Source: a virus (taxonomy: Duplodnaviria > Caudoviricetes). Taken from it: DNA of 61,775 nucleotides. Of this stretch, positions 35,301 through 59,640 are shown one piece after another. The notes beneath the pieces were generated by a model. The model saw only the letters and a program-made list of their open reading frames with translations, did not search any database and was not told the origin of the DNA. Position 1 is the first letter of the stretch. Each line of letters begins with the position of its first letter. Location: positions 1-61,775 of IMG/VR virus record IMGVR_UViG_3300023112_000002, one strand, 5' to 3'. The position numbers and the translations under genes are program-made.

Positions 35301-38300
35301 TGAAAGTGAAAGCGAAACCGAAGTTTCTCCAGAGACAACGGAGGAGAAAGTAGAACTTACCGTAGAGGAACGCGCAAAACAAATAGAAGAGTTAGTGGAG
35401 CAGGAGCAGGAAGATAGCAAGCCTCTTGAGCCACAACCTATACCGCGTGAGCAGTTAGAGTCTATAGACGAAACGGTTTCTATAAATAAAAAGAACGCTC
35501 CGAAAAGAGTAAACCCTTTATTAGATACAGTAAAGAGGAGAGTTAGTAGGGCGGCTAAAGCCATTAAAAGAATTGCTCCAAGCGTAAAGATAATAATGCA
35601 TGAGAGCGCAGAAGATTTCACTGCAGCTACAGGGTCTCGAGGGAGAGGAACTTTTTTAGATAACACTATACACATAAACTTAGAAGACGCTTCAGGAACT
35701 ACAGTAGCTCACGAAGCGTTCCACGCTATCTTATTAAGTAAGATATCTACAGACCTTCAAGCGCAGCAAGTGACGAAGAGGCTGATGCAAAGTATGGCTA
35801 AGTCTTTGGATGCAAACTCTCCTTTAAAAAAGAAGATAGAAGAATTTGTGGAGGGGTACGATGAGAATATAAAGAATGAGGAGCGGTTGGCTCAGGTATT
35901 GGGGGAGCTATCTTCTAACTACACACAGTTAAAAGCTCCAGAGAAAAGTCTGGTGCGTAGGTGGATAGATAAACTTTCTAAGAGACTTGGATACGAGGTG
36001 TCGGAGTTTACTCAAGAGGATCAAGATGTGGTAGATTTACTTAACACGTTAGCCGCTAAGGTAACGGCAGGGGTAGAGGTAGAAGAGGGGGATGTAGAGA
36101 TTTTAGAAACCGAGCAGGGTGACGGAGGAGAAGTAGGTAAACTTAAAGTAAGGGAGCAGAAGGATTCTCGCAACTCCCCTAAAGTAGAGACAGACAAGAG
36201 ATCGTTTGCTAAATTTATTTCTAATAAAGACTTAGGAGATTTTGATGGGAGAGATTTCGTTACCAACATGTATGACTTTACTACAGCAGGTGTAGTGGAT
36301 ATAGGTAATGGTATTACTCTGGATCTACAGGGAGGGAAGAGTTATGTCCCTTTTATGATGGAGAAGCAGGGTTTGAATATCGGGGATGTGTCTAACTTAG
36401 CCGCGTTTAATAATAAAGCTCAGGCAGAAACTTTTGTAAGGAACTCAGAGCAAGGGAACGCAACCTTGTTTATGCCCCATGCTGGAACCATTGAAGGGTC
36501 GTGGCAATTTCAACAGTCTATATTTGAGCAGCTCATAAACGCTGCTTTAGATAATAAGATACTTTCTAATAAGGAGATAATAAACTCTTTCAACGAAGTC
36601 TTAACGAATGAGGTAGGAAAGAAAGCTTTCGCTATCTTTAAAAAGAAGTTAGGTAAGAATATAAGAAACTTTAACTCCTTCTCTAAGAACCCATTAGAGA
36701 TAGTAGAGCTCTTAAACACTACAAATAATTTTTCTCCTGAGTTAAGGAAAGCTTTAAACGATAAACTGTCTGCCAATAAAAAGTATCAGGCAGCTATCGG
36801 TGTAAAATCTAAAGAAGCTTTTGCACGTAAGATGGAGGACCCTTTGAATAAAGGTGTTGAAGGGGGTGACCTGATGGGGGTTATAGAGTTTGACAACACG
36901 AGCTTTGAGATAAGCAAACCTAAGCCAGGTGATGCAGACTACCATCCATCTTTTGCATGGACTGTCAAAGCAAAGATCGAGGGGATATATCAGCCTACTA
37001 AGTTTTACAAATCTTACGATGTGACGGAGGAGTACACCAGGTACAATCAATCTGGACCGAATGTATCTCGTAAAGCAGAGCAAACGAAGGAACAGTTTAA
37101 GAAATCCAATGTTATGGGACATACGGGGGCTGGACCTAAAGTAGCTAAGGTCTCGAAGCGTGAGCAGATTATAGGACAGAATGCAGAGCTTTCCGCACAG
37201 GTAAGAGAGGATTTACAGTACGCTAAAATTGAGCATGAAGCTTACATGATGCAGAAGGAGGGTGTCCTTGCCGCTCCTACAGAAAATATGATGAACCCCG
37301 CAGCTATTAAAGAGATAACAGGATGGGAGTTGGGGGCAGACGGGAAGTGGAAATATGAGATACAAGACGGAAGACTGAAGGAGGAGGGCACAGGTGTTTG
37401 GAAACTTTCGGATATATATGATGCCCCCGAGTTCTACGACGCATATCCCGAAGCAAAAGATATATTGGTGTCTATACAGGTCAGGCCTGAGGGTAAAGAA
37501 AATTCCTGGTATATGCCGGGTAATGAATTTATGTTACCCTCTATTGAGATAAATGTAAAAAATCAATACAGGGTTGTTCAAGACTTAGTTCATGAGCTCC
37601 AGCACTTTGTCCAATACCAAGAAGGGTTTGCTATAGGGGGTAATGAGTCTACATTCGCCTACAACCCTGAGCTGGTAAAACAAGCTGAAAAGGAGGGGAG
37701 TAAAGAGGAATTAGTTATAAAGAATGAGATGTTACGAGCTCTTTCTTTTACTATCGAAGAAGCTATAGGTGAGCATGAGGGTGTGGCTTTAGATAAAATT
37801 ATGACTAAAGAGTTTTTAGAGAAGAATATGGGCTTCTATCTTGACACCTTTGATAATCTTGTTGAGAGAGGATTGATTGACAAAGACGCAGATTTTGCTC
37901 AAGCTTTAGAAGACTTTTATTTTGAGCTCCCTGAAATGGATAGAAGAAAGCTTAAGATTGCACAGAGAGAAGGGGGAATGAATGAAGCTTTAGATGTTGC
38001 CGATGAGATATCTGAGCCTGTTAGAGAATCGCTTCAGAAGTTAGGTAATTTCGCAATGTACGAGAGGCTTATGGGGGAGGTAGAAGCTCGTAACGTCACG
38101 AAAAGATTATTTTATACCGCAGAGAAGAGAGTAAGAAATACGCTTGAGAGTACTGAGGACGTTAGCAGAGAAGACCAAATTGCATATTTTGATACGAGTG
38201 AAAGCAAGGAGGATGTAACTACCGAAGAGTCAAAGCCTGCCCCTCGTGAGCAGAAGGCTCCGATCAAGCAAACCAAAAGAGAGTTTGTAGCACGGTTGAA

Positions 38301-41300
38301 GGATGCCCTTAAGGGTGAGGGAAGTTTCGCGCATATGACGGCGGAGAATCCTGCGAACAAGACTATGTCCGCAAAGGAGAATGCTATAAGGAATAAAGAG
38401 TTGAAGGCGCAGCTCGATGAGATGGGGTACGATGCCGTAGCAATAGATGGTAGGTATGACAGAGACGAGAAGTCTTTCTTTGTGCCTGATATAAGTGAGG
38501 CGGATGCGATAGAGATAGGGAAGAAGTATGGACAAGAGTCCGTAGCCCACAGCAAGGGGATGCTATATACCACAGGTAAAGACAAAGGAAAAAGGAATCC
38601 CATCACGGGAGACGTAGAGGTAAATAATAAATTAAAGAATTACTATAGCGAGATACAAACTAAGGGTGGGAAAGTAAAGTATAGTGTGGGGTATAACTTC
38701 GACGTTCTCACAGAAGATTCCTCTAAGAAGAAGCCTGCAACTCGTGAGCAGAAGGAGGTAAGGTTCCAGAAGATAGCAGATAAGTTTCAGGATCCAGTAG
38801 AGATAATTAAACTTGCACGAACTGCAGGGTTCGAAGACTCCGAGATAAAATACTTCCTTCAGAAAACAAAGAAATTAAAAGTTAAAGAGATAAACGATCT
38901 TCTTAAAGTAGATGTAGATATGTTTGAGTCTATGCCTTCGGTATTTGGAAATGTACCAGGGGGGATGGTAGCGGGTAGGAAACTATATGAAGCTACTATG
39001 AAGAAGTTTAATTCTTTACTTAAGAAAAACTTGAAGCGCCCGAAAGAAAAGCAGGCAAGTATGGCTGATATGATAAACGAATCTATAGAGTTTATGATGG
39101 GCCGTAAAGTATATAAGGAGGCTACGGAAGGGGTGACGTCTAAAACAGAACTCTCTACCCTACAGCAGCAGCTACAAGCAGCGATGCAAGAAGCGTTAGG
39201 CGGAGGTAAGGTTAAAGATATAAGTAAGAAAATTAAAGAGCTGAAGAAGATTTTACGTCAGAAGATCCGAGGGGCGCGAGAGGTTAGAGATGTCAAGAGA
39301 CAGTTGCAAAGAACGATTCGTGAGGTGTTGCCCAAAGCTGCGTTTAATAAAACAGAAGTTAGAAACTTACTGAGAACGATACAGGACGCTGAGCCTAAGT
39401 GGTTGAAAGGAAATCTAAGGTTCCTTGCTGAAAAGATTGAGTCGTTGGCGGCAGAAAAAAATGTATCTATATTAAATAAAGCTATCCAAAAAATATTGGA
39501 CAATAAGTTTTTAGTTAAGGTGGGTGGTTTAGAGAAGTTGATTAAGATAGATCAGGCCACATATAAAATAGTGGAGTCTATAAAAGATAAGATGTATAAG
39601 GCTGCAGAAGTAAAGGATGATATCATTAAGGAGCAGACTAAACTTATCGAACAGGTAGAGGAATTAAATAGAAAGGTACAGCTGACAGAGGAAGAAGAGA
39701 CGCAGCTATTGGTGTTGAATATAGCGCTGGGTATTAACAATGCTAAGCTCATGGAGGATAGTAACCCCCGTAAAGCGGATCAGTTAGCGGAGGTATATAA
39801 CAACCTGAAAGATCTTATCACTCAAGGTCGCAACAACTATAAGGAAGCGGCGAAGGAAAGATCAAAAAGGTATGCGAAAAATACAGCCCTATTCCACCAA
39901 GCTTTAGAAGGCTATAAAGACGTATTAGATTTCACAGATCCAGAGGTGCTGGAGCGTATAAGGAAAGACCTTAAAGACAGGGCAGATGAGAAGGCTTCTA
40001 ACTACGGAAGGAACGCCCTTAAAGAATACTTTAAAAAGATAGGAGACAATATAGATAAGTACTTAAAGATGGGGACGCTGGGTTTAAGCCAACTGTCTTC
40101 AGCTTTAGATAAATCTCCTGGTGCAGCCTTCGAAGGTTTTATAAAAGACTTTGTATACCGAAAGGTGAATGAGTCTACCCGTATGTACAAAGAAAGCATG
40201 ATGGCTTTGGATCAGATACTTACGGAAAAGACAGAAGAGTATTTAGGGAAAGACTACGCAAAAAAGATTAAGGAATATAGGAAGTCTATAGATTTCCTTG
40301 AGCTACAAGACGGAAAGTTCTTGAAAGATCCGCAAGAGGTAAAGGATGCGCAGGCAGAATTTGATAAAGACCCTACCAGAAAAAATAAAGATAAATTAAA
40401 TAAGATAATTAGAAAGAATATTCCTTTCTCTAACCTCACCCCTCTGCAGCTGCAGTATCTATACTTTCAGTATAAGCAGAAGGATACGCATGCAGGTTTT
40501 AAAACTTCATTGGGGGACAACTACCAGCCTATAATGGATGGGTTGAGTAAGCATTTTGAAGAGACTTACCCTGATCTTTTAGAGCTGGGGCGCTGGCAGG
40601 TAGAGGTTTTGCTTCCTTCGCTATATGAAAAGTATAACGAAGTATACAAGAAGTTATACAATACAGACCTACCTCAGAGGGATAACTATTCTGGAAGAAC
40701 ATTTAGAGTTATATCAAAAGGAGATAAGGTAGAGATGGAGAAGTACGATCCTTTGTCTCTCCTCTCGGAACAGGGTATGCCTCAGATGGGGATGAATGTA
40801 ATAGGAAACTCTACTAAGCTGACTCAGAAAAATAGTAAAGCTATTATGCCTGTCGATGCTTTCACAGCTATCGATACATACCTGAAAGATATGGAGCACT
40901 TCGCTGCATATGCAGAGAATATCAATGAAATATCTAAAGTGTTCTTTAATAAAGATATTGTAGATACCATTGTAAGTATACACGGACAGGATGTCTACGA
41001 TACCATTAGGAAACAATTAATGGCTACAGCTCAACGCGGAGCCAATCAATCTGATAAGACTGTTGATTTGGTAAATAGAGCTAACAATATATTTATTGTA
41101 CAGAAACTGGGAGCGGGGCTTACGGTATACCTTAAGCAGTTAACTTCTATTGGGACTTACGGAAACTTTATCGGGTACGGAAACTGGATAAAGACAGCTA
41201 CCACTATGGGACCTAAAGAGTTTATAAAAGCATGGAAAGAAATCTCTGAAGAGTCGGTATATATAAAGTATAGATACTGGCAGCAGATTAGTAAAACGAT

Positions 41301-42390
41301 TGAAGCATATGGGGAGAAGCAGATGGAGACATATACTCCAGGAGATAAGGGTAATAAAACACTTCGACTCCTTATGTCACCGATTAAAGCGGGAGATAAG
41401 CAGGCTATATATTTAGGTGGTATACCTAACTATGTGTTCTTAAAAAACAAATTCATGAAGCAAGGCATGAGTGAGGAGAACGCAAAGAAGAAAGCGATGC
41501 TGATGTTTGAGGAACAAACCAAGGAGGTTCAGCAGTCTTCAGATAAGCAAGATAAAGATTCGATACAAAATGAGGGCGGTCTTGTTCAGACTTTTAATAT
41601 GTTTATGTCTGCCCCGAAAGCATACCTAAGACAAATATTTGGAGGGTATAGAGAGTTGGGGCGTAATATAAAAGATGGTTCAGGTAAAGGAACCACGGGT
41701 GAAAACCTCAGAACTATATTGGTGTATCAATTTGCTATGCCTATGATCTTTCAATGGGCAGGATCAGGATTCCCTGTAACGGACTGGGATGAAGAGGATA
41801 AGAAAGATATGGCCAGAGCAGCGATCCTAAGCGTGTTCAATTCTATCTTTGTGTTGGGTCAGATATTAGAAATGGGGGCTGACTACGCTACAGGTAAGCC
41901 ATGGTGGGATGATTTGAAACAATTCCCGGTGCTTGATTTAGTAAAGGATGCTATTAAACAGTATGACAAAACCAACCTTGAGGACTCTGAGAAAGCAGAT
42001 GAAGCTTGGAAGCAATTTATATTTACCCTTATGCCTTTAGCTTCTGTAGTTCCAGGAGGACGTACCGTAGCGGCTCTCCCTTTTAAAACTTTAGATAGGA
42101 TGAGGTTAAATATGAAGAAGATTATTCAAGATGGTGGCGACCCTAAAGAAGTCTTCTTAAGATTGTTTAACTACTCCGACTATGTTATAGAGGGGCCTGA
42201 AGAGAAAGAGAAGAAGACGAAGAAGCTAAGAAAGAGTGAGGTGGATAAGTATATGCCCGAGCTATCCGAACAGATGGAAGAGTTTAATAACGATCCAGAC
42301 TATAAAGAAATGTTAAAGGATATAAAGGATCTAAAGAAAGAGCAAGAGGCTATGCGTCAAGAGCTCTTGGAAGAGATGTTTGCTGATTAA
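32377..42390 (+). CDS. Giant (3337-aa) polyvalent ejection protein with zincin-like HExxH, LPD23-like and DUF3293-like modules
   Basis: HEAFH (~35710); TGWELGADGKWKYEI, HELQHFVQYQEGF and GEVEARNV (~37320-38100); TAENP...N..L...GY...GRY...EKSFFV (~38330-38480). Confidence 0.7.
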   Translation: MDEQVLKDLIATAEASNYNWEEVMPKFPELADVDLQVLKDYVETAKHYDYDYDVVNAKFPELGLKKKGASEPTVQEDVMESTTPVVEEQPISSESSAPQEGDQSVFDAEVEEAPETVTEFAAYDPREESGTPESMAQGIVTSATNPMLRAFVDPADRTNVTYDADATTFERSLAFITPDLIGREEEEVVNRMKYHFTDYGFTFSQTGIGDAMIVKADNGEEIEIDLDPFTRGGEEQGSIELQNFLQQNRRVDPEMEELTYSYDLNRKKYFSRQAVDRDIQSVRDQSETLGLRYQDYLREQGEIDTAITAMTQVPLSERGPEFKAEYDALIQKKSELAGVKGELQQEVGEFQIYSDKINSAVGNYLTMKEDDSSAGLTFLKAGWNNILSGITGPLASAAGIPMDLFYGVAQTVDEDFGMTEEERKERYITIATDLGYDIPENIEDDAVYNKWLEGLMESTFEAEGVEGEGISATMNRYPKEIREELEAEGYDPSRVINADGLKMWNNEGGILGNGGWEEIPDYASDTSPGERLKRLVMDQEVKENKEPTKQLVRSLLDVARFDDVSEERVAAQSESVIVEGMLGLAQSAPSIALGLIGRGKGPKYKGAEKPLAKFIQSLKNYATSPGAVSQTIGFSLLQTDALMQEMENDPDFKYVTETEKKALTVPLAVSTAILETYGLRSLAKGPMLGKLMTQVTKLLPKGATPKMFTETFKKVVESNIAKGVYSSKALRGVGIVGGAAAVEAETGGLQTVAEIGMKNVWNDMYEKEMFNTPEMWSEEFYNQVIRGAAAEAVGGFVMGTPRALTTAFNRGDIDEVSDDMVALFNEIRKDGTTVEAYKTQLDLKVANQELTKEEANQALLDFEVLSGAAASIEKGTELTPTQTKKALGLVYLKNKLESEMDGMDPDLGSYKAKQEMLVTIKDKLSKIGTEEEVDANLKPKKDAIQESSTTEVDVQKQTQDGAAVGEGDTTGGVAVESESETEVSPETTEEKVELTVEERAKQIEELVEQEQEDSKPLEPQPIPREQLESIDETVSINKKNAPKRVNPLLDTVKRRVSRAAKAIKRIAPSVKIIMHESAEDFTAATGSRGRGTFLDNTIHINLEDASGTTVAHEAFHAILLSKISTDLQAQQVTKRLMQSMAKSLDANSPLKKKIEEFVEGYDENIKNEERLAQVLGELSSNYTQLKAPEKSLVRRWIDKLSKRLGYEVSEFTQEDQDVVDLLNTLAAKVTAGVEVEEGDVEILETEQGDGGEVGKLKVREQKDSRNSPKVETDKRSFAKFISNKDLGDFDGRDFVTNMYDFTTAGVVDIGNGITLDLQGGKSYVPFMMEKQGLNIGDVSNLAAFNNKAQAETFVRNSEQGNATLFMPHAGTIEGSWQFQQSIFEQLINAALDNKILSNKEIINSFNEVLTNEVGKKAFAIFKKKLGKNIRNFNSFSKNPLEIVELLNTTNNFSPELRKALNDKLSANKKYQAAIGVKSKEAFARKMEDPLNKGVEGGDLMGVIEFDNTSFEISKPKPGDADYHPSFAWTVKAKIEGIYQPTKFYKSYDVTEEYTRYNQSGPNVSRKAEQTKEQFKKSNVMGHTGAGPKVAKVSKREQIIGQNAELSAQVREDLQYAKIEHEAYMMQKEGVLAAPTENMMNPAAIKEITGWELGADGKWKYEIQDGRLKEEGTGVWKLSDIYDAPEFYDAYPEAKDILVSIQVRPEGKENSWYMPGNEFMLPSIEINVKNQYRVVQDLVHELQHFVQYQEGFAIGGNESTFAYNPELVKQAEKEGSKEELVIKNEMLRALSFTIEEAIGEHEGVALDKIMTKEFLEKNMGFYLDTFDNLVERGLIDKDADFAQALEDFYFELPEMDRRKLKIAQREGGMNEALDVADEISEPVRESLQKLGNFAMYERLMGEVEARNVTKRLFYTAEKRVRNTLESTEDVSREDQIAYFDTSESKEDVTTEESKPAPREQKAPIKQTKREFVARLKDALKGEGSFAHMTAENPANKTMSAKENAIRNKELKAQLDEMGYDAVAIDGRYDRDEKSFFVPDISEADAIEIGKKYGQESVAHSKGMLYTTGKDKGKRNPITGDVEVNNKLKNYYSEIQTKGGKVKYSVGYNFDVLTEDSSKKKPATREQKEVRFQKIADKFQDPVEIIKLARTAGFEDSEIKYFLQKTKKLKVKEINDLLKVDVDMFESMPSVFGNVPGGMVAGRKLYEATMKKFNSLLKKNLKRPKEKQASMADMINESIEFMMGRKVYKEATEGVTSKTELSTLQQQLQAAMQEALGGGKVKDISKKIKELKKILRQKIRGAREVRDVKRQLQRTIREVLPKAAFNKTEVRNLLRTIQDAEPKWLKGNLRFLAEKIESLAAEKNVSILNKAIQKILDNKFLVKVGGLEKLIKIDQATYKIVESIKDKMYKAAEVKDDIIKEQTKLIEQVEELNRKVQLTEEEETQLLVLNIALGINNAKLMEDSNPRKADQLAEVYNNLKDLITQGRNNYKEAAKERSKRYAKNTALFHQALEGYKDVLDFTDPEVLERIRKDLKDRADEKASNYGRNALKEYFKKIGDNIDKYLKMGTLGLSQLSSALDKSPGAAFEGFIKDFVYRKVNESTRMYKESMMALDQILTEKTEEYLGKDYAKKIKEYRKSIDFLELQDGKFLKDPQEVKDAQAEFDKDPTRKNKDKLNKIIRKNIPFSNLTPLQLQYLYFQYKQKDTHAGFKTSLGDNYQPIMDGLSKHFEETYPDLLELGRWQVEVLLPSLYEKYNEVYKKLYNTDLPQRDNYSGRTFRVISKGDKVEMEKYDPLSLLSEQGMPQMGMNVIGNSTKLTQKNSKAIMPVDAFTAIDTYLKDMEHFAAYAENINEISKVFFNKDIVDTIVSIHGQDVYDTIRKQLMATAQRGANQSDKTVDLVNRANNIFIVQKLGAGLTVYLKQLTSIGTYGNFIGYGNWIKTATTMGPKEFIKAWKEISEESVYIKYRYWQQISKTIEAYGEKQMETYTPGDKGNKTLRLLMSPIKAGDKQAIYLGGIPNYVFLKNKFMKQGMSEENAKKKAMLMFEEQTKEVQQSSDKQDKDSIQNEGGLVQTFNMFMSAPKAYLRQIFGGYRELGRNIKDGSGKGTTGENLRTILVYQFAMPMIFQWAGSGFPVTDWDEEDKKDMARAAILSVFNSIFVLGQILEMGADYATGKPWWDDLKQFPVLDLVKDAIKQYDKTNLEDSEKADEAWKQFIFTLMPLASVVPGGRTVAALPFKTLDRMRLNMKKIIQDGGDPKEVFLRLFNYSDYVIEGPEEKEKKTKKLRKSEVDKYMPELSEQMEEFNNDPDYKEMLKDIKDLKKEQEAMRQELLEEMFAD

Positions 42391-42707
42391 AAGTTCTTGT
42401 CGTAGTTCTTACGCTCCGCCTCGGTCTTGTATATAAAGAATGCTTGGAACCCACTGACATGAGAGTCGGTGGGGAAGAAGTACTTCCATCCCTTGGACGC
42501 ACCCCTGTTGATATAGTAGCAGAAGGCTACGCCTATCTTACCATTGCTCTTAACAAAGTTTATCACAGCTGTGTGGTCCGACATAGGGATAACGTCCTGG
42601 ACATAAAAAGCCTCCTTGTTCACATTACCCTCACGATCTGTACATGAGTAGCGCCTGGCTATTTCCTGTGCAAACTTATTTAATTCTTTAGCTATTGGTC
42701 TTTGCAT
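42387..42707 (-). CDS. Hypothetical protein
   Basis: 106-aa ORF converging on the giant gene. Confidence 0.75.
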   Translation of the reverse strand: MQRPIAKELNKFAQEIARRYSCTDREGNVNKEAFYVQDVIPMSDHTAVINFVKSNGKIGVAFCYYINRGASKGWKYFFPTDSHVSGFQAFFIYKTEAERKNYDKNF

Positions 42708-43048
42708 TTGATTCGTCGGTTATGGGTTGCTACTCGGTGACAGTTGGAACATCTCACCTCACACTTATCTATTTCTTTTTGTATACTTTCTACACAGTAG
42801 GATCTATAAACCATGTTTGATATATCGCACACCTTCTCTCCTTTAACATGGTCAAAGTCCAACACTAAAGGATTGCTTTCCCCGCAGTCAACACACGGGG
42901 ATGACCGCTTTATCTGGTCCACAAAAGCTTTGTTTATAACCCTCTGCTTCTTATTTCTTTTATAACTTCTGGCTACTATCTTTTCTTTATTAGCCTCGTA
43001 ATGACGCTTAGCAGCCGCTGCTTGATCCTCTTTATTTTTGTAAGCCAT
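42692..43048 (-). CDS. HNH endonuclease
   Basis: CVDC...LDFDH...CEVRCSNCHR zinc/HNH motif. Confidence 0.85.
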   Translation of the reverse strand: MAYKNKEDQAAAAKRHYEANKEKIVARSYKRNKKQRVINKAFVDQIKRSSPCVDCGESNPLVLDFDHVKGEKVCDISNMVYRSYCVESIQKEIDKCEVRCSNCHRVATHNRRIKCKDQ

Positions 43049-43061
43049 GGGTGGTTAGTTG

Positions 43062-43135
43062 TGATCCCGCAGGGACTCGAACCCCAAACCGCCTCCTTAG
43101 AAGGGAGGTGCTCTATCCAGTTGAGCTACGAGACC
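43062..43135 (-). tRNA. tRNA-Arg(TCT), CCA not encoded
   Basis: GGTCTCG acceptor, GCTC/GAGC D-arm, CCTCC-CTTCTAA-GGAGG anticodon arm, GGTTCGAGTCC T-arm. Confidence 0.92.
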
Positions 43136-43136
43136 A

Positions 43137-43325
43137 TTAGGTTTCTTCAGCTAAGGATGCGAGAAGGTCGGCTAACAACTTGATAAGTTCTTGTGCCTCT
43201 TCTTTCACCTCATCATACTCCCTGTCCATCAACCCCTCGTACAGGGTGTCGGCATAGTCGTGGATGAGATTGGACACATAGTTTATATGCTGTATAGTAA
43301 CCTTATCTTCGGGGTGTACAGGCAT
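43137..43325 (-). CDS. Hypothetical protein
   Basis: 62-aa ORF within the operon. Confidence 0.65.
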   Translation of the reverse strand: MPVHPEDKVTIQHINYVSNLIHDYADTLYEGLMDREYDEVKEEAQELIKLLADLLASLAEET

Positions 43326-51364: not shown

Positions 51365-51650
51365 GTTTATTAAATTTAAGTAATGCAAGGTACAAACTTA
51401 GTGTAGAACACGCAAGTTTTATGCATACTATTTTTGTTTTATTTTCACTTTTGGTTATGCTATTAGGTGATTTGATTCACTTATAACGTGAGTTCATGTT
51501 CATTTTATGACTCTTATTGAACAAATAAGAGTAATATGTTCACTTATAATGAGCGCACTTCATGATAAACGGGCGCATTGGTACATATGTATCAGTCGTG
51601 TATGCTTTTTGTACTCTCTTTGGACATACGAGGGTAATATGTTCATTTAT

Positions 51651-52126: not shown

Positions 52127-52251
52127 TTGTTTTGAATTTGACTCCATACATCTCTGTGGTTGTCGATTAATGTTCTCTTTAAAGCTTGTAGTTCGCGCCA
52201 AAGTTCTTTGATGACCTTAGCTTGTTCCTTAATTGTTTTCTCTTTATCCAT
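52123..52251 (-). CDS. 42-aa coiled-coil protein (not in the ORF track)
   Basis: MDKEKTIKEQAKVIKELWRELQALKRTLIDNHRDVWSQIQNK. Confidence 0.7.
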   Translation of the reverse strand: MDKEKTIKEQAKVIKELWRELQALKRTLIDNHRDVWSQIQNK

Positions 52252-52573
52252 TGTTATATATGTTTATTAAGTATACTGCTACGTTATATAAGTCCTCGAT
52301 TGAACGCCATTTCTTTTGCTTGTTCCTCCTTAGAGAATTATCAATCATTCCATGCGGATCGAGTCCGTCATTTTCGATCTTCTCTACTACGGGCATCAAC
52401 CAATCCCATGATGTGTGGTATTTCATTTCGTCAGGGGTGTAGAAATGTTGTGCGTTTTCATCATCTGAATCAACGTCTAAGCAACCTGTGATGTACACAT
52501 CCCACTCGGTAGGATTGTATTTAGGTGTACCCACAGCACCCATAAATTCCGCTATTAGTTTATTGTTGTTCAT
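52244..52573 (-). CDS. NKLIAEFMG/SWxWLMPV family protein, copy 1
   Basis: Shares motifs with three other ORFs. Confidence 0.8.
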   Translation of the reverse strand: MNNNKLIAEFMGAVGTPKYNPTEWDVYITGCLDVDSDDENAQHFYTPDEMKYHTSWDWLMPVVEKIENDGLDPHGMIDNSLRRNKQKKWRSIEDLYNVAVYLINIYNNG

Positions 52574-53457: not shown

Positions 53458-53778
53458 TTAGTAATCATCTTTGTCTGCGTTCATATCGTTCCAGAACCCC
53501 CCTGAACAATCCTTAGAGCAGAACTGACCTTGTTTCTCTACACGATTTGCATCGCAGTAGTCACACATAATTTCTTCTTCCTCCTCTTCAAACTCGTATA
53601 GGATTTCTCCATCTTTAGCAATGTATCCCTCCTCAATAAGAGAGACTGCCGATCTTCCGTAATGACCTTGTAGTGTCCAAGCCATGCCCGATCTGATTAA
53701 CTCAGAGAATAACTCTATAGATTCTCTATCGTTTAATTCGCCTACCTCGTAAGCTATGATTTGATTTGTTATATTCAT
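53458..53778 (-). CDS. Hypothetical protein with a C-terminal CxxC...CxxxC zinc ribbon
   Basis: AWTLQGHYGR, CDYC...FCSKDC. Confidence 0.7.
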   Translation of the reverse strand: MNITNQIIAYEVGELNDRESIELFSELIRSGMAWTLQGHYGRSAVSLIEEGYIAKDGEILYEFEEEEEEIMCDYCDANRVEKQGQFCSKDCSGGFWNDMNADKDDY

Positions 53779-53796
53779 AATATATTATTTAATTTG

Positions 53797-53906
53797 TACA
53801 CGCAGAGGAGTCGAACCTCGAACCCATATAGGAAATTCAGAGAACCTATTGAGGGAACACCTACATTGTATCCTGAAGTTTTTGCAAACCTACAATGCTA
53901 CGTGCA
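53797..53906 (-). ncRNA. tRNA-like structured RNA (acceptor-like stem plus T-arm, no anticodon arm)
   Basis: TGCACGTAG pairs with CTGCGTGTA; GAGG-TTCGACT-CCTC T-arm; two internal stems; entirely intergenic. Confidence 0.55.
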
Positions 53907-53911
53907 TGTTG

Positions 53912-54073
53912 TTACCTTTTGTTACAATTATTCCCATCACTCCATCCACCTCCGTTTCGATTGTTTCCGTACTCAGTCGCTCCTGATGAGGTAGCGCATG
54001 AGGTTAAACTCATAGCTACAAGTATAGCTACTAAGAGTGTGTATGCTAAGCATACCTTGTTTGTGTGTTTCAT
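53912..54073 (-). CDS. 53-aa putative lipoprotein (not in the ORF track)
   Basis: MKHTNKVCLAYTLLVAILVAMSLTS-CATSSG...: basic N-terminus, hydrophobic core, LTSC lipobox. Confidence 0.7.
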   Translation of the reverse strand: MKHTNKVCLAYTLLVAILVAMSLTSCATSSGATEYGNNRNGGGWSDGNNCNKR

Positions 54074-54204
54074 AGTTTAGATAGTTTTTCGTTTATTATT
54101 CTTAATTCCTCGATTGCAAATGTGCTTCCGTGAGCATCGCACTCATCCATCCACCAAAACAATTTCTTCTTGTCTTGCAGTAGTTCTTCTTTAGTTTTTT
54201 TCAT
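54070..54204 (-). CDS. 44-aa hypothetical protein (not in the ORF track)
   Basis: MKKTKEELLQDKKKLFWWMDECDAHGSTFAIEELRIINEKLSKL; ATGA coupling. Confidence 0.6.
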   Translation of the reverse strand: MKKTKEELLQDKKKLFWWMDECDAHGSTFAIEELRIINEKLSKL

Positions 54205-54210
54205 TGTATT

Positions 54211-54432
54211 TCATTTGTTATATTCTTTAATAAATTCTACTACTGCTTGGTACACTTCTTCGATGTTGCACGTTGTTAAGGCTACAGCTAAGTTATCCCA
54301 TCCTTCGGTGTTATCTTCAGGGTTTATACACTTCTTAGCTACTGGCATCAACCAATCCCATGAGATGTGGTACTCCATATACAATGGAGGTTTTACCCCC
54401 ATAAATTCTGCTATTAGTTTGTTGTTATCCAT
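54211..54432 (-). CDS. NKLIAEFMG/SWxWLMPV family protein, copy 2
   Basis: Shared motifs. Confidence 0.8.
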   Translation of the reverse strand: MDNNKLIAEFMGVKPPLYMEYHISWDWLMPVAKKCINPEDNTEGWDNLAVALTTCNIEEVYQAVVEFIKEYNK

Positions 54433-54712
54433 TGTTATATTCTTTAATAAATTCTACTATTGCTCGGTATGTGTTATCTATATCAAATGATAACACTGCA
54501 TTATGTACTCTATTGATAGCATCATCTACTTCGTCATCCTCACCAAACATGGCATCTATCTTCTCGCCTACTGGCATCAACCAAGACCATGATGTATGAA
54601 ACTCGTATGCCCAAAACTCTCCGCTATCTAACTCTAAGTTAGAAAGATGTAGGTTGCTTGGTATTTTAATATCCCATCCCATAAATTCTGCTATTAGTTT
54701 ATTGTCTTTCAT
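54425..54712 (-). CDS. NKLIAEFMG/SWxWLMPV family protein, copy 3
   Basis: Shared motifs. Confidence 0.8.
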   Translation of the reverse strand: MKDNKLIAEFMGWDIKIPSNLHLSNLELDSGEFWAYEFHTSWSWLMPVGEKIDAMFGEDDEVDDAINRVHNAVLSFDIDNTYRAIVEFIKEYNNG

Positions 54713-54957
54713 AGTTCCTTTGCATTACAGGTTAGCATATCAGTATCCATCTGCTCAAGTTCTTTTTCAGCTATGATATCCCATATCTCATCGAAGATAT
54801 CTTCTTCATACGTTTCAGGAGTGAGGTCGATCTTTGACGCTCTAAAATCTCCATTCACAATTCTTTTAATTTGTGAAGGTGTAAGATTGTCATCGGGTAG
54901 TTCTACCCCGAATGTTGTGGTGTATGTGCGCACAACTTCTATTTCAAATTTTTTCAT
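54709..54957 (-). CDS. Hypothetical early protein
   Basis: 82 aa, ATGA coupling. Confidence 0.65.
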   Translation of the reverse strand: MKKFEIEVVRTYTTTFGVELPDDNLTPSQIKRIVNGDFRASKIDLTPETYEEDIFDEIWDIIAEKELEQMDTDMLTCNAKEL

Positions 54958-55304
54958 TGTATTTCAATTAGTTTTCCGTTAATTTCTTCGTATTGATGTT
55001 CGCTCTCATCCTCCCACTCAGTGTAGTATAGGTAGTCTTGTTGGTATCCGATAAGCAATAAATCTTCATCCGTTTCCTCCTCATTCTTTGCTCTCTCTAT
55101 CGCTTCAGCCAACTCATCCCACCTCTCGTTATCTTGTACGTTCAAAGGTGTAAGGTCATCTACTTCTCGAAGGATTGCATCTCGGTCATTTCTACATTCA
55201 GTTAACGTACTCTTCTCAGACTTGGTGTAGAACACACCTTCGCCCCAGCACCAACCTTCGTTCATTCCTTCGCCCGTTATAGAGCATTTACGTGCGTATT
55301 TCAT
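54954..55304 (-). CDS. Hypothetical early protein
   Basis: 116 aa, RKCSITGEGMNEGW and YYTEWE; flanked by TGAAATAC repeats. Confidence 0.7.
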   Translation of the reverse strand: MKYARKCSITGEGMNEGWCWGEGVFYTKSEKSTLTECRNDRDAILREVDDLTPLNVQDNERWDELAEAIERAKNEEETDEDLLLIGYQQDYLYYTEWEDESEHQYEEINGKLIEIQ

Positions 55305-55633
55305 TTGTTATATTCTTTAATAAATTCTACTACTGCTTTGTAGGTTGCTTCGTGTAGTGTTAATCCAACCTCAAAGATTCTTCTATACTTTTCGTCCTCT
55401 TTGTAGCATAGAATTACACATTGGTCAGACTCATTGTTTGTTTCTATTGTTATGGTGTGATATAACTCACCAATCTTTTCTACAACAGGCATCAACCAAT
55501 TCCATGAAGTGTGATATTGTGCTTGTTCATACACATCTACATCTACGTTTATCTTTCCTTGATGTAGTGAGGCTAATGAATCCTTGAAAGAATCCATCCC
55601 CATAAATTCTACTATTAGTTTGTTATCGTTCAT
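55301..55633 (-). CDS. NKLIAEFMG/SWxWLMPV family protein, copy 4
   Basis: Shared motifs. Confidence 0.8.
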   Translation of the reverse strand: MNDNKLIVEFMGMDSFKDSLASLHQGKINVDVDVYEQAQYHTSWNWLMPVVEKIGELYHTITIETNNESDQCVILCYKEDEKYRRIFEVGLTLHEATYKAVVEFIKEYNK

Positions 55634-55776
55634 GCTTTCTTAATTGTGTCGATTATTTTTACTCCCGATGCGCTCACCTTGTCGTACCATCTTGAAAAGT
55701 GTAGTTCGTTGTTGAACGTCTTGGTTTTAGTTATGTAGCGATTGCCTCGCTTGATTGATATGTCGTATGTTATCAT
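55630..55776 (-). CDS. 48-aa hypothetical protein (not in the ORF track)
   Basis: MITYDISIKRGNRYITKTKTFNNELHFSRWYDKVSASGVKIIDTIKKA; ATGA overlaps at both ends. Confidence 0.65.
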   Translation of the reverse strand: MITYDISIKRGNRYITKTKTFNNELHFSRWYDKVSASGVKIIDTIKKA

Positions 55777-56045
55777 AGTAGTGAAGGTATTGTTGCAAGG
55801 AGAACGTGAATCTTCTTGAAGTGATTGATGTACTCAAGTTCATCGTTTAAAGCGTCCAAAAGTTCGTCCATCGAATACTCGTCATCAACACATCCCTCAA
55901 CCTCTGCATATAGACTCTTAGCACGTTCGTATGAGTAGAGCATATGGTCGTGGTAGGTGTCTCCGCGCTGACCTTCGACTACGTAGATTCCATACGTAGC
56001 GTATGTGTCGTATATCTTGCGCATTATGTTTTGTGCTTTGTTCAT
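55773..56045 (-). CDS. Hypothetical early protein
   Basis: 90 aa, coupled. Confidence 0.65.
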   Translation of the reverse strand: MNKAQNIMRKIYDTYATYGIYVVEGQRGDTYHDHMLYSYERAKSLYAEVEGCVDDEYSMDELLDALNDELEYINHFKKIHVLLATIPSLL

Positions 56046-56242
56046 TTTGATAGGTGGTTTAAGATTTCTTGCGCTTTGTCCATCGCATAGCTACGTTGTT
56101 GTGTCATCGTTCCAGCAACTTGTGGTGTAGGTAGCATAATGCTATATGCCTTGTCTCCTACCTTTAAAGTGTAGAACTCTTGGTGACGTTGGATAGCATT
56201 AGCCATCTCGTTTGTGTGGTTGTTTGTTTCTTCTAAAGTCAT
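56042..56242 (-). CDS. Hypothetical early protein
   Basis: 66 aa. Confidence 0.65.
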   Translation of the reverse strand: MTLEETNNHTNEMANAIQRHQEFYTLKVGDKAYSIMLPTPQVAGTMTQQRSYAMDKAQEILNHLSK

Positions 56243-56268
56243 CTTAAATTAGATTGGTGAATAATTAG

Positions 56269-56315
56269 AGCGGAGAAACGGAGCGAATCGTTTCGAGGTG
56301 CGCACTACCTCCGCT
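56269..56315 (-). ncRNA. Compact multi-stem intergenic RNA element
   Basis: AGCGGAG...CTCCGCT closing stem around GAGGT/ACCTC and GAAACG/CGTTTC hairpins; GC-rich within an AT-rich spacer. Confidence 0.45.
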
Positions 56316-56322
56316 TGTTGGT

Positions 56323-56547
56323 CTATCCTATCTCGATATCCCTATTCTCGATAGCCTCTTGCATCTCATCTTCCCAATCTGAAGAGAGCATATTCTCGTA
56401 CACCTCCTCTCGTGTAACGTGCGCCCAATTCGTGCGGATGTTGTACTGACCTGATGCAACCATCTCGTCAGATGGGGTGTAGTACACCTCAATTCTGATG
56501 TTGTCTATGTCTCTCTGTCCGCAGTTAACTACTCTAAAATCGTTCAT
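56323..56547 (-). CDS. Hypothetical early protein
   Basis: 74 aa, directly downstream of the ribozyme. Confidence 0.7.
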   Translation of the reverse strand: MNDFRVVNCGQRDIDNIRIEVYYTPSDEMVASGQYNIRTNWAHVTREEVYENMLSSDWEDEMQEAIENRDIEIG

Positions 56548-56570
56548 GGTATATGTATTAGTTAATAAAT

Positions 56571-56620
56571 GTAACAGACGTCTCGCGACGTTTCGACCAT
56601 TGAGGTCTCATCAGTGTTAC
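56571..56620 (-). ncRNA. Type I hammerhead ribozyme
   Basis: GTAACA-CTGATGA-GACC(TCAAT)GGTC-GAAA-CGTC(GCGA)GACG-TC^TGTTAC: complete catalytic core, three perfect stems, GUC cleavage triplet. Confidence 0.92.
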
Positions 56621-56895
56621 TTTGGGTTATAGGACATATAAACCTCACGCTCACTTGCGCTCTTAGGCACACCCGCTTCATTCTCGTAACCGAGTAAACG
56701 TTGCTTCGTCACTTCGTGAGCATCGATGGTCTTGTTCCATTGTCTATCGTTTTGTGTTAGTCTATCTCTTAGGTTAGCTATCTCAAATTGAAGGTCTTTC
56801 CGTTCCTTTCTATGGTGGGTATTAATCTCTCGTATCTGATTAAGGTAGTCGTTCTCAAGTTGTACGAGGTCTTGGAGTGTAACTGAATCGCTCAT
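56617..56895 (-). CDS. First early gene, coiled-coil hypothetical protein
   Basis: 92 aa; the stop codon lies inside hammerhead stem I. Confidence 0.75.
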   Translation of the reverse strand: MSDSVTLQDLVQLENDYLNQIREINTHHRKERKDLQFEIANLRDRLTQNDRQWNKTIDAHEVTKQRLLGYENEAGVPKSASEREVYMSYNPK

Positions 56896-56937
56896 GGTAT
56901 TGTGTATTAAATTAGTATTAAATGTTTAATGATGGAG

Positions 56938-56945
56938 CAAATATA
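56938..56945 (-). promoter_or_regulatory. Early promoter -7 box TATATTTG
   Basis: TAnnTTTG on the minus strand about 43 nt upstream of the first early ATG. Confidence 0.6.
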
Positions 56946-58047: not shown

Positions 58048-59640
58048 ATGCAAGAGCAAGGGTATATTGCTAAAGACCTTTCCTTCGATGAAGAGGGCAG
58101 GGCAAAACTTATCAGCGGGATCACTGCTATCTCTAAAGCGGTTAAGAGTACGCTGGGCCCACGAGGCAAGACTGTCATCATTGAATCTACAAACCACCTT
58201 GGCGGATTAACTGTCACAAAGGATGGGGTCACTGTAGCGAAGAGTATTGATCTATACGATCCCGTTGAGAACATAGCTGTACGCATGGTAAAGGAGGCTG
58301 CTAATAAGACAGCTTCCATTGCTGGTGATGGAACCACCACGGCTATTGTTCTTACGGAAGCTTTGGTTTGTTCTGGCATAGAGCATATGTCTGGCGACGT
58401 CAATGCCACGGAGGTCATTGGTATCATCCGAGAGAAGGTTGACGAGGTTATTAAAAAGTTAGAGAAGCGATCTCGTAAGGTTACGGGCAAGAGGCTTTTG
58501 GATGTAGCCACTATCTCTGCTAACAACGATAAGAGTTTGGGTAAGCTTATCACGGATACCTATAACGAGGTTGGTTTGGATGGCATTGTTACGGTGGAGC
58601 GTTCTCAGACGGCAGACACCTATGCAGATATTACTACGGGTATTAAAGTTGACCGTGGGTATAGCTCCCCTTTGTTCATCAACAACCATAAGAAGGATGA
58701 GTGTGTGCTCGAGGATGTGAAGATTTTGGTATGCGATGCTGAGATCAACAACATCATGCAGATCGAGACTGTCTTGAAGGATGTGGTTCAGAAGAATGAG
58801 AAGCTGCTTATCATTGGAACGTGTAGTGTGAATATGATAAACACTTTAGCGGCCAATGTTATGAAGAACGGATTAAAGTTCTGTAACGTCCCTCCCCCCA
58901 ACTTCGGGTACAAGCAGCACGAGCTCATGCAGGACATCGCTTTGGCTGTTGGGGCTACGTACTTCTCTGAGAAGACGGGCGACGATCTTAGTCTTATCCT
59001 CCCCAGAGATTTAGGCCATGCGCAAAAAGTCGTGGCAGGCAAAGACTCTACTGTCATCCTTACGGGTAATGATATGAGCGAAGAGTGCACGACTCGCGTA
59101 GAGGAATTGCGTGAGCAGCAGGTGAGAACTAAGAACAAGGGTGAGCGTGACTTTATCAACACGCGTATCGCGAGTTTAGCTGGCGGCATAGGATGCATCT
59201 ATGTTGGTGGGGATAGTGACATCGAGCAGAAAGAAAAATTTGACCGCGTCGACGACTCGGTATGCGCTGTGCGCAGTGCCCTCCAGGAAGGCATCCTTCC
59301 GGGTGGCGGGTTAGCATTATGGCGTTTGGCTCCCGACCCTTCGCAGAGCTGTGACTATAGGGAGGAGGATTTGGCCAACCGTATTTTACACGACGCTTTA
59401 AAATCTCCTCTGCTTCAGATTATGGAGAACGCAGGATTGGATGGGGAGCGCATCATGGACAACGACGATCTTATAGACGACACCCATGGGTTCGATGTTA
59501 AGAACGAGAAGTACGGGGACATGTACAAGATGGGTGTTATCGATCCACTTAAGGTTACCAAGAATGCCTTGATCAATGCCACGAGTGTAGCCACCACTAT
59601 CCTTAGCACCAATGCTATTGTAACACACGCCCGCGCATGA
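58048..59640 (+). CDS. groEL: Chaperonin GroEL (phage-encoded, lacks the GGM tail)
   Basis: TLGPRG, VTKDGVTVAK, AGDGTTTA, DRGYSSP, GILPGGG, GVIDPLKV. Confidence 0.97.
   Translation: MQEQGYIAKDLSFDEEGRAKLISGITAISKAVKSTLGPRGKTVIIESTNHLGGLTVTKDGVTVAKSIDLYDPVENIAVRMVKEAANKTASIAGDGTTTAIVLTEALVCSGIEHMSGDVNATEVIGIIREKVDEVIKKLEKRSRKVTGKRLLDVATISANNDKSLGKLITDTYNEVGLDGIVTVERSQTADTYADITTGIKVDRGYSSPLFINNHKKDECVLEDVKILVCDAEINNIMQIETVLKDVVQKNEKLLIIGTCSVNMINTLAANVMKNGLKFCNVPPPNFGYKQHELMQDIALAVGATYFSEKTGDDLSLILPRDLGHAQKVVAGKDSTVILTGNDMSEECTTRVEELREQQVRTKNKGERDFINTRIASLAGGIGCIYVGGDSDIEQKEKFDRVDDSVCAVRSALQEGILPGGGLALWRLAPDPSQSCDYREEDLANRILHDALKSPLLQIMENAGLDGERIMDNDDLIDDTHGFDVKNEKYGDMYKMGVIDPLKVTKNALINATSVATTILSTNAIVTHARA

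Follow-up and report, generated by a model that had tools for sequence, protein, structure and literature searches.

Interchangeable structured RNAs between the early genes of an uncultured marine phage as candidate modules for cutting a polycistronic message

Introduction

What purpose do structured RNAs serve that lie between the early genes of a phage, if nearly all other genes of the same block overlap? This question is raised by the virus record IMGVR_UViG_3300023112_000002 (Duplodnaviria; Caudoviricetes), which was analyzed over its whole length of 61,775 bp (the window) and which is a complete record with direct terminal repeats. The early region lies on the minus strand, and its three longest spacers are filled by a hammerhead ribozyme, by a three-way junction of 47 nucleotides (nt), here called E2, and by a tRNA-like element of 110 nt, here called E3b. 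A preliminary description of the sequence had claimed that these elements cut a single early transcript into separately stabilized units. Our analysis suggests that the three spacers carry interchangeable intercistronic punctuation modules that cut the early polycistronic RNA, a reading that is based on sequence comparison and that we consider somewhat probable. The window probably represents a marine phage not yet cultured, with a host among the Bacteroidota (probably Flavobacteriia), judged from its promoter box, a match to cultured phages and the seawater sequencing runs that contain the window sequence.

In the early RNA of phage T7 the intercistronic ribonuclease (RNase) III sites form long imperfect duplexes, and the cuts of this double-stranded RNA nuclease yield separately stable mRNAs. 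In mitochondrial tRNA punctuation, as well as for the plant mitochondrial t-elements and the MALAT1 mascRNA, cuts by RNase P and RNase Z define the mRNA ends. Furthermore, engineered insulators of the RiboJ type place a self-cleaving RNA in front of a standard leader and thereby free expression from its upstream context. Clustered hammerheads were described to flank prophage genes and a role in the processing of phage transcripts was proposed, and hammerhead clusters of three arrays were shown to cleave polycistronic constructs of approximately 2 kb in vitro (Perreault et al., 2011; PMC3088659). What most hammerheads of bacteria and phages are for is still regarded as open in a 2019 review (PMC6765202).

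Results

Three structured RNAs occupy the longest spacers of the early operon

Between positions 56895 and 51651 of the minus strand, 21 open reading frames (ORFs) are connected by 20 junctions. Fourteen of these overlap, mostly by ATGA, and two more are gaps of 1 and 6 nt, in agreement with the earlier claim that the early genes almost all overlap. The remaining four are spacers of 69, 80, 133 and 39 nt. Hammerhead, E2 and E3b occupy the three longest, each beginning 0–9 nt past a stop codon and each followed by an AU-rich leader as had been described (Table 1). The fourth spacer of 39 nt (53457-53419), which had gone unmentioned, contains no recognisable element. The coordinates previously given for the promoter and the three elements were all correct and refer to the minus strand. 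The claim of a single promoter holds for the -7 box TATATTTG in front of the operon, which follows the pattern TAnnTTTG that we take to be the Bacteroidota -7 consensus; the minus strand from 51.0 to 57.3 kb contains two further matches to this pattern, at 53892 inside E3b and at 51400 before the next gene block, and all three are intergenic. A scan of the same strand and range for intrinsic terminators, i.e., a GC-rich hairpin followed by a U tract, found none, which sets the elements apart from such terminators and fits one long transcript. In a relative, the early region carries a clear intrinsic terminator with a long GC-rich hairpin and a T run (contig L136, 8605-8696, minus strand), of which the early block of the window has no counterpart.

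Single-sequence folding gave weak z-scores for the three elements (-2.1, -1.2 and -1.8). That they are more than chance is concluded from the conservation of the copies found in relatives (73 of E2, 27 of the hammerhead and five of E3b), which bears out the earlier claim that they are real and conserved RNA structures of the sense strand in intercistronic spacers.

The elements replace each other at orthologous positions

The neighbouring proteins of the elements were clustered, and 130 non-redundant element instances were kept from 156; the loci were found via the E2 pattern, so that the E2 counts in the following are inflated relative to those of hammerhead and E3 elements. In the slot leading from orfB to orfC, E2 is present in four contigs (the window included) and a hammerhead in one, and in a second slot, from orfB to another family, E2 and hammerhead occur once each. 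Among the gene pairs seen at least twice, 2 of 18 are mixed in element type. Upstream of the orfC family 13 E2 copies and four hammerheads were counted, upstream of the orfB family nine hammerheads and two E2 copies, and downstream of the orfB family seven E2 copies and four hammerheads, whilst one family of small membrane proteins is followed by E3a, a further tRNA-like subtype, in two cases, by E2 in two and by E3b in one. Pairwise alignment revealed that the end of the upstream gene and the leader are conserved and that the element alone is swapped. Moreover, in the maps of two related phages each long early spacer holds a hammerhead, E2 or E3 element, and 20 of the 52 E2-bearing loci also contain a hammerhead. 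The proposed substitution of the element types at orthologous positions in related phages was thereby found both for E2 and hammerhead and for E2, E3a and E3b; the elements, their structures, conservation, positions and mutual replacement are matters of direct observation.

The distance from the end of the element to the next ATG is also kept, being 23–27 nt in 28 of 34 hammerheads and 21–29 nt in 53 of 71 E2 copies, and the leader in between resembles the leader of the primary transcript. Gene order varies among the three mapped phages while element and leader are shared, and some E2 copies are preceded by GTAACAC, the first half of hammerhead stem I, which is likely a recombination scar. These two observations favor the view that the elements are mainly linkers for cassette shuffling by recombination at the DNA level, with the RNA structure being secondary. 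As a full explanation this is extremely improbable, since the compensatory base changes reveal selection at the RNA level and since the hammerhead and E2 spacers, unlike T4-type promoter-stem-loop cassettes, contain no TAnnTTTG promoter. Linking can be an added role of the elements, not the sole one, and the idea probably describes how the modules move.

The hammerhead ribozyme

The hammerhead is composed of stem I GUAACA/UGUUAC (6 bp), the core CUGAUGA, stem II GACC/GGUC (4 bp) followed by GAA, and stem III ACGUC/GACGU (5 bp, GNRA loop) with a C at position H17; of the three helices only stem I is open, the other two being capped. The window copy contains the complete core, i.e., C3-U4-G5-A6-N7-G8-A9, G12-A13-A14 and A15.1-U16.1 with H17 not being G, its minimum free energy (MFE) structure is the hammerhead fold, and the single occurrence of the core pattern in the window compares with an expectation of 0.06. 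The cut is predicted between 56577 and 56576. The Rfam model RF00163 scores the window copy with 29.0 bits (E=3e-4 in 4 kb) and hammerheads of relatives with 31.0 and 27.6 bits, and stem III and its loop are longer than in the mostly eukaryotic seed of this model. All 27 distinct copies from relatives, chosen by the core and by at least 13 of 15 stem pairs, show the full core, with compensatory changes in stems I, II and III and with H17 being C in 25 and A in two. By these features we regard the element as a genuine ribozyme, and it is predicted to cleave itself.

As in the arrays described previously, the hammerheads separate genes on a polycistronic RNA of a phage. They differ from those arrays in being of type I, with an open 6-bp stem I that includes the upstream stop codon, and in belonging to a marine Bacteroidota-type phage in which hammerheads alternate with non-hammerhead elements in the same slots (PMC3088659). 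The distant contig L158 (2820-4400, plus strand) carries three hammerheads, each followed by a short extra hairpin (e.g., GAUGCA CA AUGCAUC) and then by the leader.

E2, a compact three-way junction with the topology of a truncated tRNA

E2 contains three helices. P1 is formed by 56315-56310 with 56274-56269 (6 bp), P2 by 56309-56306 with 56300-56297 (3–4 bp across copies, loop A-G-Y-G-C-G-Y) and, past a junction of two nucleotides (UC), P3 by 56294-56289 with 56280-56275 (6 bp, loop A-U-U-C-G-C-Y-Y). The GCG of the first loop (56303-56301) is predicted to pair with the CGC of the second (56285-56283), and this loop-loop contact is likely. P3 continues directly into P1 on the 3′ strand resulting in a stack of 12 bp, and P2 and the junction break the 5′ strand only; as modelled, the topology is that of a tRNA minus its anticodon arm ("top-half"). 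About 20 unpaired nucleotides are near-invariant, and conserved flanks, ACA at 56318-56316 and C at 56268, enclose the element. The tails of some E2 copies are not U-rich.

Applied to 87 sources, the E2 model resulted in 106 hits, 73 of which are distinct. In the alignment of these 73 copies, which was fitted to a related model and is hence biased toward the tested fold, 98.4% of the cells pair and 12 of the 19 pairs change on both sides; none of 500 shuffles matched the observed score, and slid controls pair in 40–57%. For the loop-loop contact, two distinct copies have A-U in place of G-C at pair 14-30, which is suggestive but thin. A compact fold with a 4-bp P1 and a 6-bp P2 was displaced by the fold with the long P1, because divergent copies compensate at 1-45, 2-44, 3-43 and 5-41. 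The alternative pair 5-19 is a wobble in three of the four copies with a U at position 5, and E2 may switch between the two folds.

Searches of Rfam 15 with 4 kb, 7.6 kb and 86 nt returned no family for E2 at E≤10, and the models of twister, twister-sister, pistol, hatchet, HDV-like and hairpin ribozymes gave no match at the same threshold. The conserved core pattern was found in nine stretches on seven viral contigs and in 97 stretches in metagenome contigs, mostly marine, and with a covariance model built from four copies, 1 (the window), 5, 3, 2 and 0 copies were detected in five virus records. A pattern scan of the bacterial and archaeal genomes of 185,579 species yielded 27 matches, and a single locus scored with the E2 model, situated on a 61.6-kb phage-sized contig binned in a metagenome-assembled genome; in this set of genomes E2 is not found in cellular chromosomes. 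A loose first pattern had produced at least 117 stretches in viral contigs, nearly all by chance, and was exchanged for the tighter one, and the octamer ATTCGCTC alone was uninformative (one match compared to 1.5 expected). A riboswitch was rejected, as the downstream genes belong to at least ten unrelated families and no expression platform is visible, and a protein operator is unlikely, as the hammerhead substitutes for E2.

These features raise the possibility that E2 is itself a self-cleaving ribozyme equivalent to the hammerhead and that its tRNA-like topology is coincidental. E2 would then found a new class, characterized by a perfect three-way junction with a 3-bp loop-loop lock and interchangeable with hammerheads and tRNA mimics. 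Like pistol, hatchet and twister-sister it is small, highly conserved and co-occurs with hammerheads in phage-like DNA; unlike these it forms a perfect three-way junction whose loops kiss, and it matches none of their Rfam models at E≤10. The exchange with the hammerhead in an identical slot, the presence of a hammerhead at many E2 loci, the near-invariant unpaired nucleotides, the loop-loop contact and the conserved flanks within or around merely 47 nt, as well as the failure of the known ribozyme models to fit, all speak for it, and an association of this type led to pistol, hatchet and twister-sister (PMC5737381). We regard a new ribozyme class as rather unlikely, since no cleavage site can be named, a junction with two unpaired nucleotides leaves scant room for an active site, and the flanks are common to elements with a canonical T arm, which points to recognition by a protein or by RNase P. 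Many candidate motifs located near hammerheads, moreover, reportedly failed to cleave in tests.

Two variants of E2 were noticed. A divergent subtype (P1 GCAGUG/CACUGC, junction CGAG) is found at L137 11636-11701 (plus strand), L207 2716-2781 (minus strand) and L173 1472-1537 (plus strand), where it ends a gene block and is followed by approximately 70 nt and a promoter-like box, which suggests that E2 can also mark the 3′ end of an operon. The copy at L209 2802-2881 (plus strand) has an insertion of approximately 14 nt replacing the P3 loop region and represents a decayed copy or, alternatively, a natural variant whose P3 is extended.

tRNA-like elements and a genuine tRNA within the message

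E3b has an acceptor-like stem of 8 bp, two long inner hairpin arms and a T stem of 4 bp with the canonical loop UUCGACU. ARAGORN makes no call at 53797-53906, the Rfam tRNA model gives 13 bits with E=3.3 (versus 29), and E3b is not a decoding tRNA. Its five copies are near-identical with an invariant D region, and their consensus fold is a four-way junction without compensatory changes. Within the D-like region of E3b the sequence TAGGTTTG (53892-53885, minus strand) matches the -7 promoter box and is kept in 5/5 copies; as a promoter it was rejected, as no suitably spaced TTG box lies upstream.

In relatives at least five tRNA-like subtypes were found, which combine canonical T arms and non-tRNA anticodon domains with the 8-bp stem and the 4-bp T stem. 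E3a (85–86 nt), in which the D stem (GG in the loop) and the T stem covary, carries CCA after the stem in five of six distinct copies and scores 31.8 bits with the tRNA-Sec model, and E3c (85 nt) is located just upstream of the promoter of a DnaA-C-type gene. Variation among the subtypes is concentrated in the part of the anticodon domain, which fits a role needing the top half of the fold only. E2, E3a and E3b have in common the ACA at -3 to -1 (94–98% in E2) and the C at +1 (100% in all types), which is followed by (U/C)AAUU. Furthermore, both E2 and E3b contain the 12-bp acceptor/T-like stack with an unbroken 3′ strand that is expected of a substrate of RNase P and RNase Z, built as 6+6 bp in E2 and as 8+4 bp in E3. 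As to the elbow, which in a tRNA arises from the contact of D loop and T loop, E2 has in its place the GCG/CGC loop-loop contact with one covarying pair.

A genuine tRNA-Arg(UCU) lies in line with the coding regions elsewhere in the window, 1 nt past a TAA stop codon and separated by 12 nt from the following ATG, between the ORFs 43137-43325 and 42692-43048, from which we infer that polycistronic mRNA of this phage must already undergo host tRNA processing at this site. The arrangement recurs in a relative (L136 157-231), and the ORF downstream of the tRNA (42692-43048, 118 amino acids (aa)) has Cys/His motifs resembling an HNH endonuclease. Taken together, the topology, the shared flanks and the in-line tRNA suggest processing of E3b and E2 by RNase P and RNase Z, and a minimal tRNA mimic is the reading of E2 that we prefer, tentatively and as a possibility.

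Alternatively, E2 and the E3 elements might primarily be functional small RNAs of the early phase, e.g., tRNA-like decoys or sponges directed at host tRNA-binding enzymes or defence nucleases, with the cutting of the mRNA being a by-product. E3b is near-invariant over 110 nt in phages with orfB proteins that are just 68–90% identical, one relative has E3b directly behind its own promoter-like TATATTTG, and all elements lie in the early region; the early regions of phages usually house take-over and counter-defence genes. The diversity of subtypes with canonical T arms and the CCA of E3a would likewise suit released RNAs. This explanation is quite unlikely, as the hammerhead, which has no tRNA likeness, fills the same slots as E2 and as E2 varies from one to five copies per genome with stems that drift freely as in a structural signal.

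Further features of the window

The coordinates of the features are compiled in Table 1. Apart from DUF7417, no Pfam or PHROG family matched the early proteins. A nucleotide search (blastn) of 4 kb against 50,697 cultured phage records found none of the three elements, and its sole match, 54 nt in 68 Flavobacterium phages, lies inside a paralogous early gene, so that the DNA similarity to cultured phages is limited to the end of one early paralogue. At least four small early genes are paralogous (55301-55633, 54425-54712, 54211-54432 and 52244-52573, minus strand); they start with M(N/K)(D/N)NKLIAEFMG, mostly end with VEFIKEYNK and match no Pfam or PHROG family.

The early block is closed by a gap of 286 nt (51365-51650, minus strand), situated in front of a small DnaA-C-type helix-turn-helix gene. 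It contains several (A/G)TGAAC(A)T-like repeats, which may be operator sites, and the next TAnnTTTG box (51400-51393). Divergent from the early operon a GroEL/Cpn60-family chaperonin of 530 aa is encoded (58048-59640, plus strand; Pfam E=2e-58), and the two are separated by approximately 1.1 kb that appears to be non-coding and includes G-rich runs. The plus strand also carries a single ORF of 3337 aa (32377-42390) and a block of the structural region (1155-22446), in which ten large ORFs gave no Pfam match.

Table 1. Positions of the RNA elements, leaders, promoter and adjoining genes (window positions unless a contig is named)
Feature	Position	Strand	Basis
-7 promoter box TATATTTG of the early operon	56938..56945	-	sequence
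First early ORF, 92 aa; TAA stop within hammerhead stem I	56617..56895	-	no Pfam or PHROG match
Type I hammerhead ribozyme (self-cleavage predicted)	56571..56620	-	RF00163 match, MFE fold, relatives
AU-rich leader, hammerhead to next ATG	56548..56570	-	junction map
orfB, 74 aa; conserved marker gene for finding relatives	56323..56547	-	ORF list
E2, 47-nt three-way-junction RNA	56269..56315	-	covariance model R1, 88.4 bits
AU-rich leader, E2 to next ATG	56243..56268	-	junction map
orfC, 66 aa; opens overlapping block extending to 53912	56042..56242	-	ORF list
Small membrane or lipoprotein-like ORF, 53 aa, preceding E3b	53912..54073	-	signal-like N-terminus in translation
E3b, 110-nt tRNA-like element	53797..53906	-	fold of 5 copies
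AU-rich leader, E3b to next ATG	53779..53796	-	junction map
ORF after E3b, 106 aa, DUF7417	53458..53778	-	family match
tRNA-Arg(UCU), genuine, no encoded CCA	43061..43135	-	tRNA search
tRNA-like subtypes (E3a, E3c, two more) in relatives	L136 9955-10069; L137 10648-10767; L136 7910-8075	-; +; -	
tRNA-like subtypes in relatives, further loci	L137 15524-15688; L154 1939-2017; L151/L154	+; +; 	

Discussion

A module would consist of a compact folded RNA directly after a stop codon and of a standard AU-rich leader of approximately 25 nt. By cutting the early RNA of approximately 5.3 kb, the modules would cause each downstream block to begin with the same leader, whatever lies upstream. The hammerhead would cut itself, leaving a 2′,3′-cyclic phosphate on the upstream and a 5′-OH on the downstream product. 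E3b might be excised by the tRNA-processing enzymes of the host, by RNase P at the 5′ side and by an RNase Z-type cut past the conserved C at the 3′ side, and E2 would most likely be cut by the same host enzymes, self-cleavage of a new class being less likely. Among the phage genes no families of RtcB, RNA ligase or CCA-adding enzyme were found, so that a ligation or circularisation of the products would depend on the host. As to the earlier claim of one transcript cut into units, the elements, their exchange and the lack of a terminator agree with it, and the cutting itself stays a prediction.

The same AU-rich, single-stranded leader after each element might also be read differently, i.e., the elements could be passive barriers or insulators that stop 3′ exonucleases or keep the leader unpaired, the cuts being made by host nucleases in the leader. 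Structured intercistronic stabilisers are common in bacteria. For such a task a plain hairpin would suffice, and the invariant loops and the kissing contact of E2 as well as the catalytic core of the hammerhead indicate selection beyond stability, which makes passive barriers very unlikely.

Several points weigh against the cutting of the message by these modules. Cleavage at all of the elements and the enzymes involved are inferred from sequence and structure. Contigs of related phages from two metatranscriptome runs cross E2 and the cut site of the hammerhead; these give no support for efficient cutting, and DNA carry-over or uncut precursor may explain them. The runs contain approximately 6% of the sampled words, solely as contigs of approximately 90%-identical relatives, and the assembly of these contigs breaks off inside E2 and the hammerhead core, as any assembly would at repeats, with one contig bridging both. 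The hammerhead scores under the Rfam gathering threshold (29.0 versus 34 bits), and its stem I has just 6 bp without a demonstrated tertiary contact. With the sequence AUUCGCYY the T-like loop of E2 deviates from a canonical T-loop, and E2 receives no score from the tRNA model at E≤10. The shared ACA and C flanks could be due to common descent or recombination joints and not to enzyme recognition. The near-invariance of E3b over its five copies exceeds the need of a mere processing signal and hints that the released RNA has a function of its own. The choice of loci via the E2 pattern, finally, affects the counts of exchange.

Compared to the known systems, the analogy to the RNase III sites of T7 early RNA that had been drawn is functional and does not extend to structure, as no stem exceeds 8 bp; instead of a stem of approximately 20 bp the longest helices have 6–8 bp, and one element is predicted to cleave itself. 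As in mitochondrial tRNA punctuation, tRNAs or tRNA-like folds are situated between coding regions. The differences are that the operon is that of a phage in a bacterium, that an 8+4 family and a 47-nt form without anticodon arm are used, and that the cleavage is a prediction. With respect to RiboJ-type insulators the modules would be the counterpart in nature, operating by three chemistries that can replace each other. Searches of the full-text literature returned no paper whose title or abstract covers an E2-like motif or tRNA-like punctuation of a phage operon, although motifs given in supplements only could be missed in this way. E2, which Rfam 15 does not contain, appears to be new, as do the 8+4 tRNA-like family and the three-way exchange. 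The clustering of hammerheads in phage transcripts is already published (PMC3088659).

As a summary, three unrelated folds are found in the same slot between the same genes, which is natural genetic evidence that selection keeps the job of the slot and not the fold. Most simply, this job would be to cut the message and to pass on a standard leader. E2 is a compact and well-defined motif for which 73 natural variants are available. The modules may represent a bacterial counterpart of mitochondrial tRNA punctuation. If E2 is a substrate of RNase P and RNase Z, it would be among the smallest natural tRNA mimics that we know of, and if it cleaves itself, it would represent a new class of ribozymes. 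Moreover, the modules could act as insulators in the synthetic biology of Bacteroidota.

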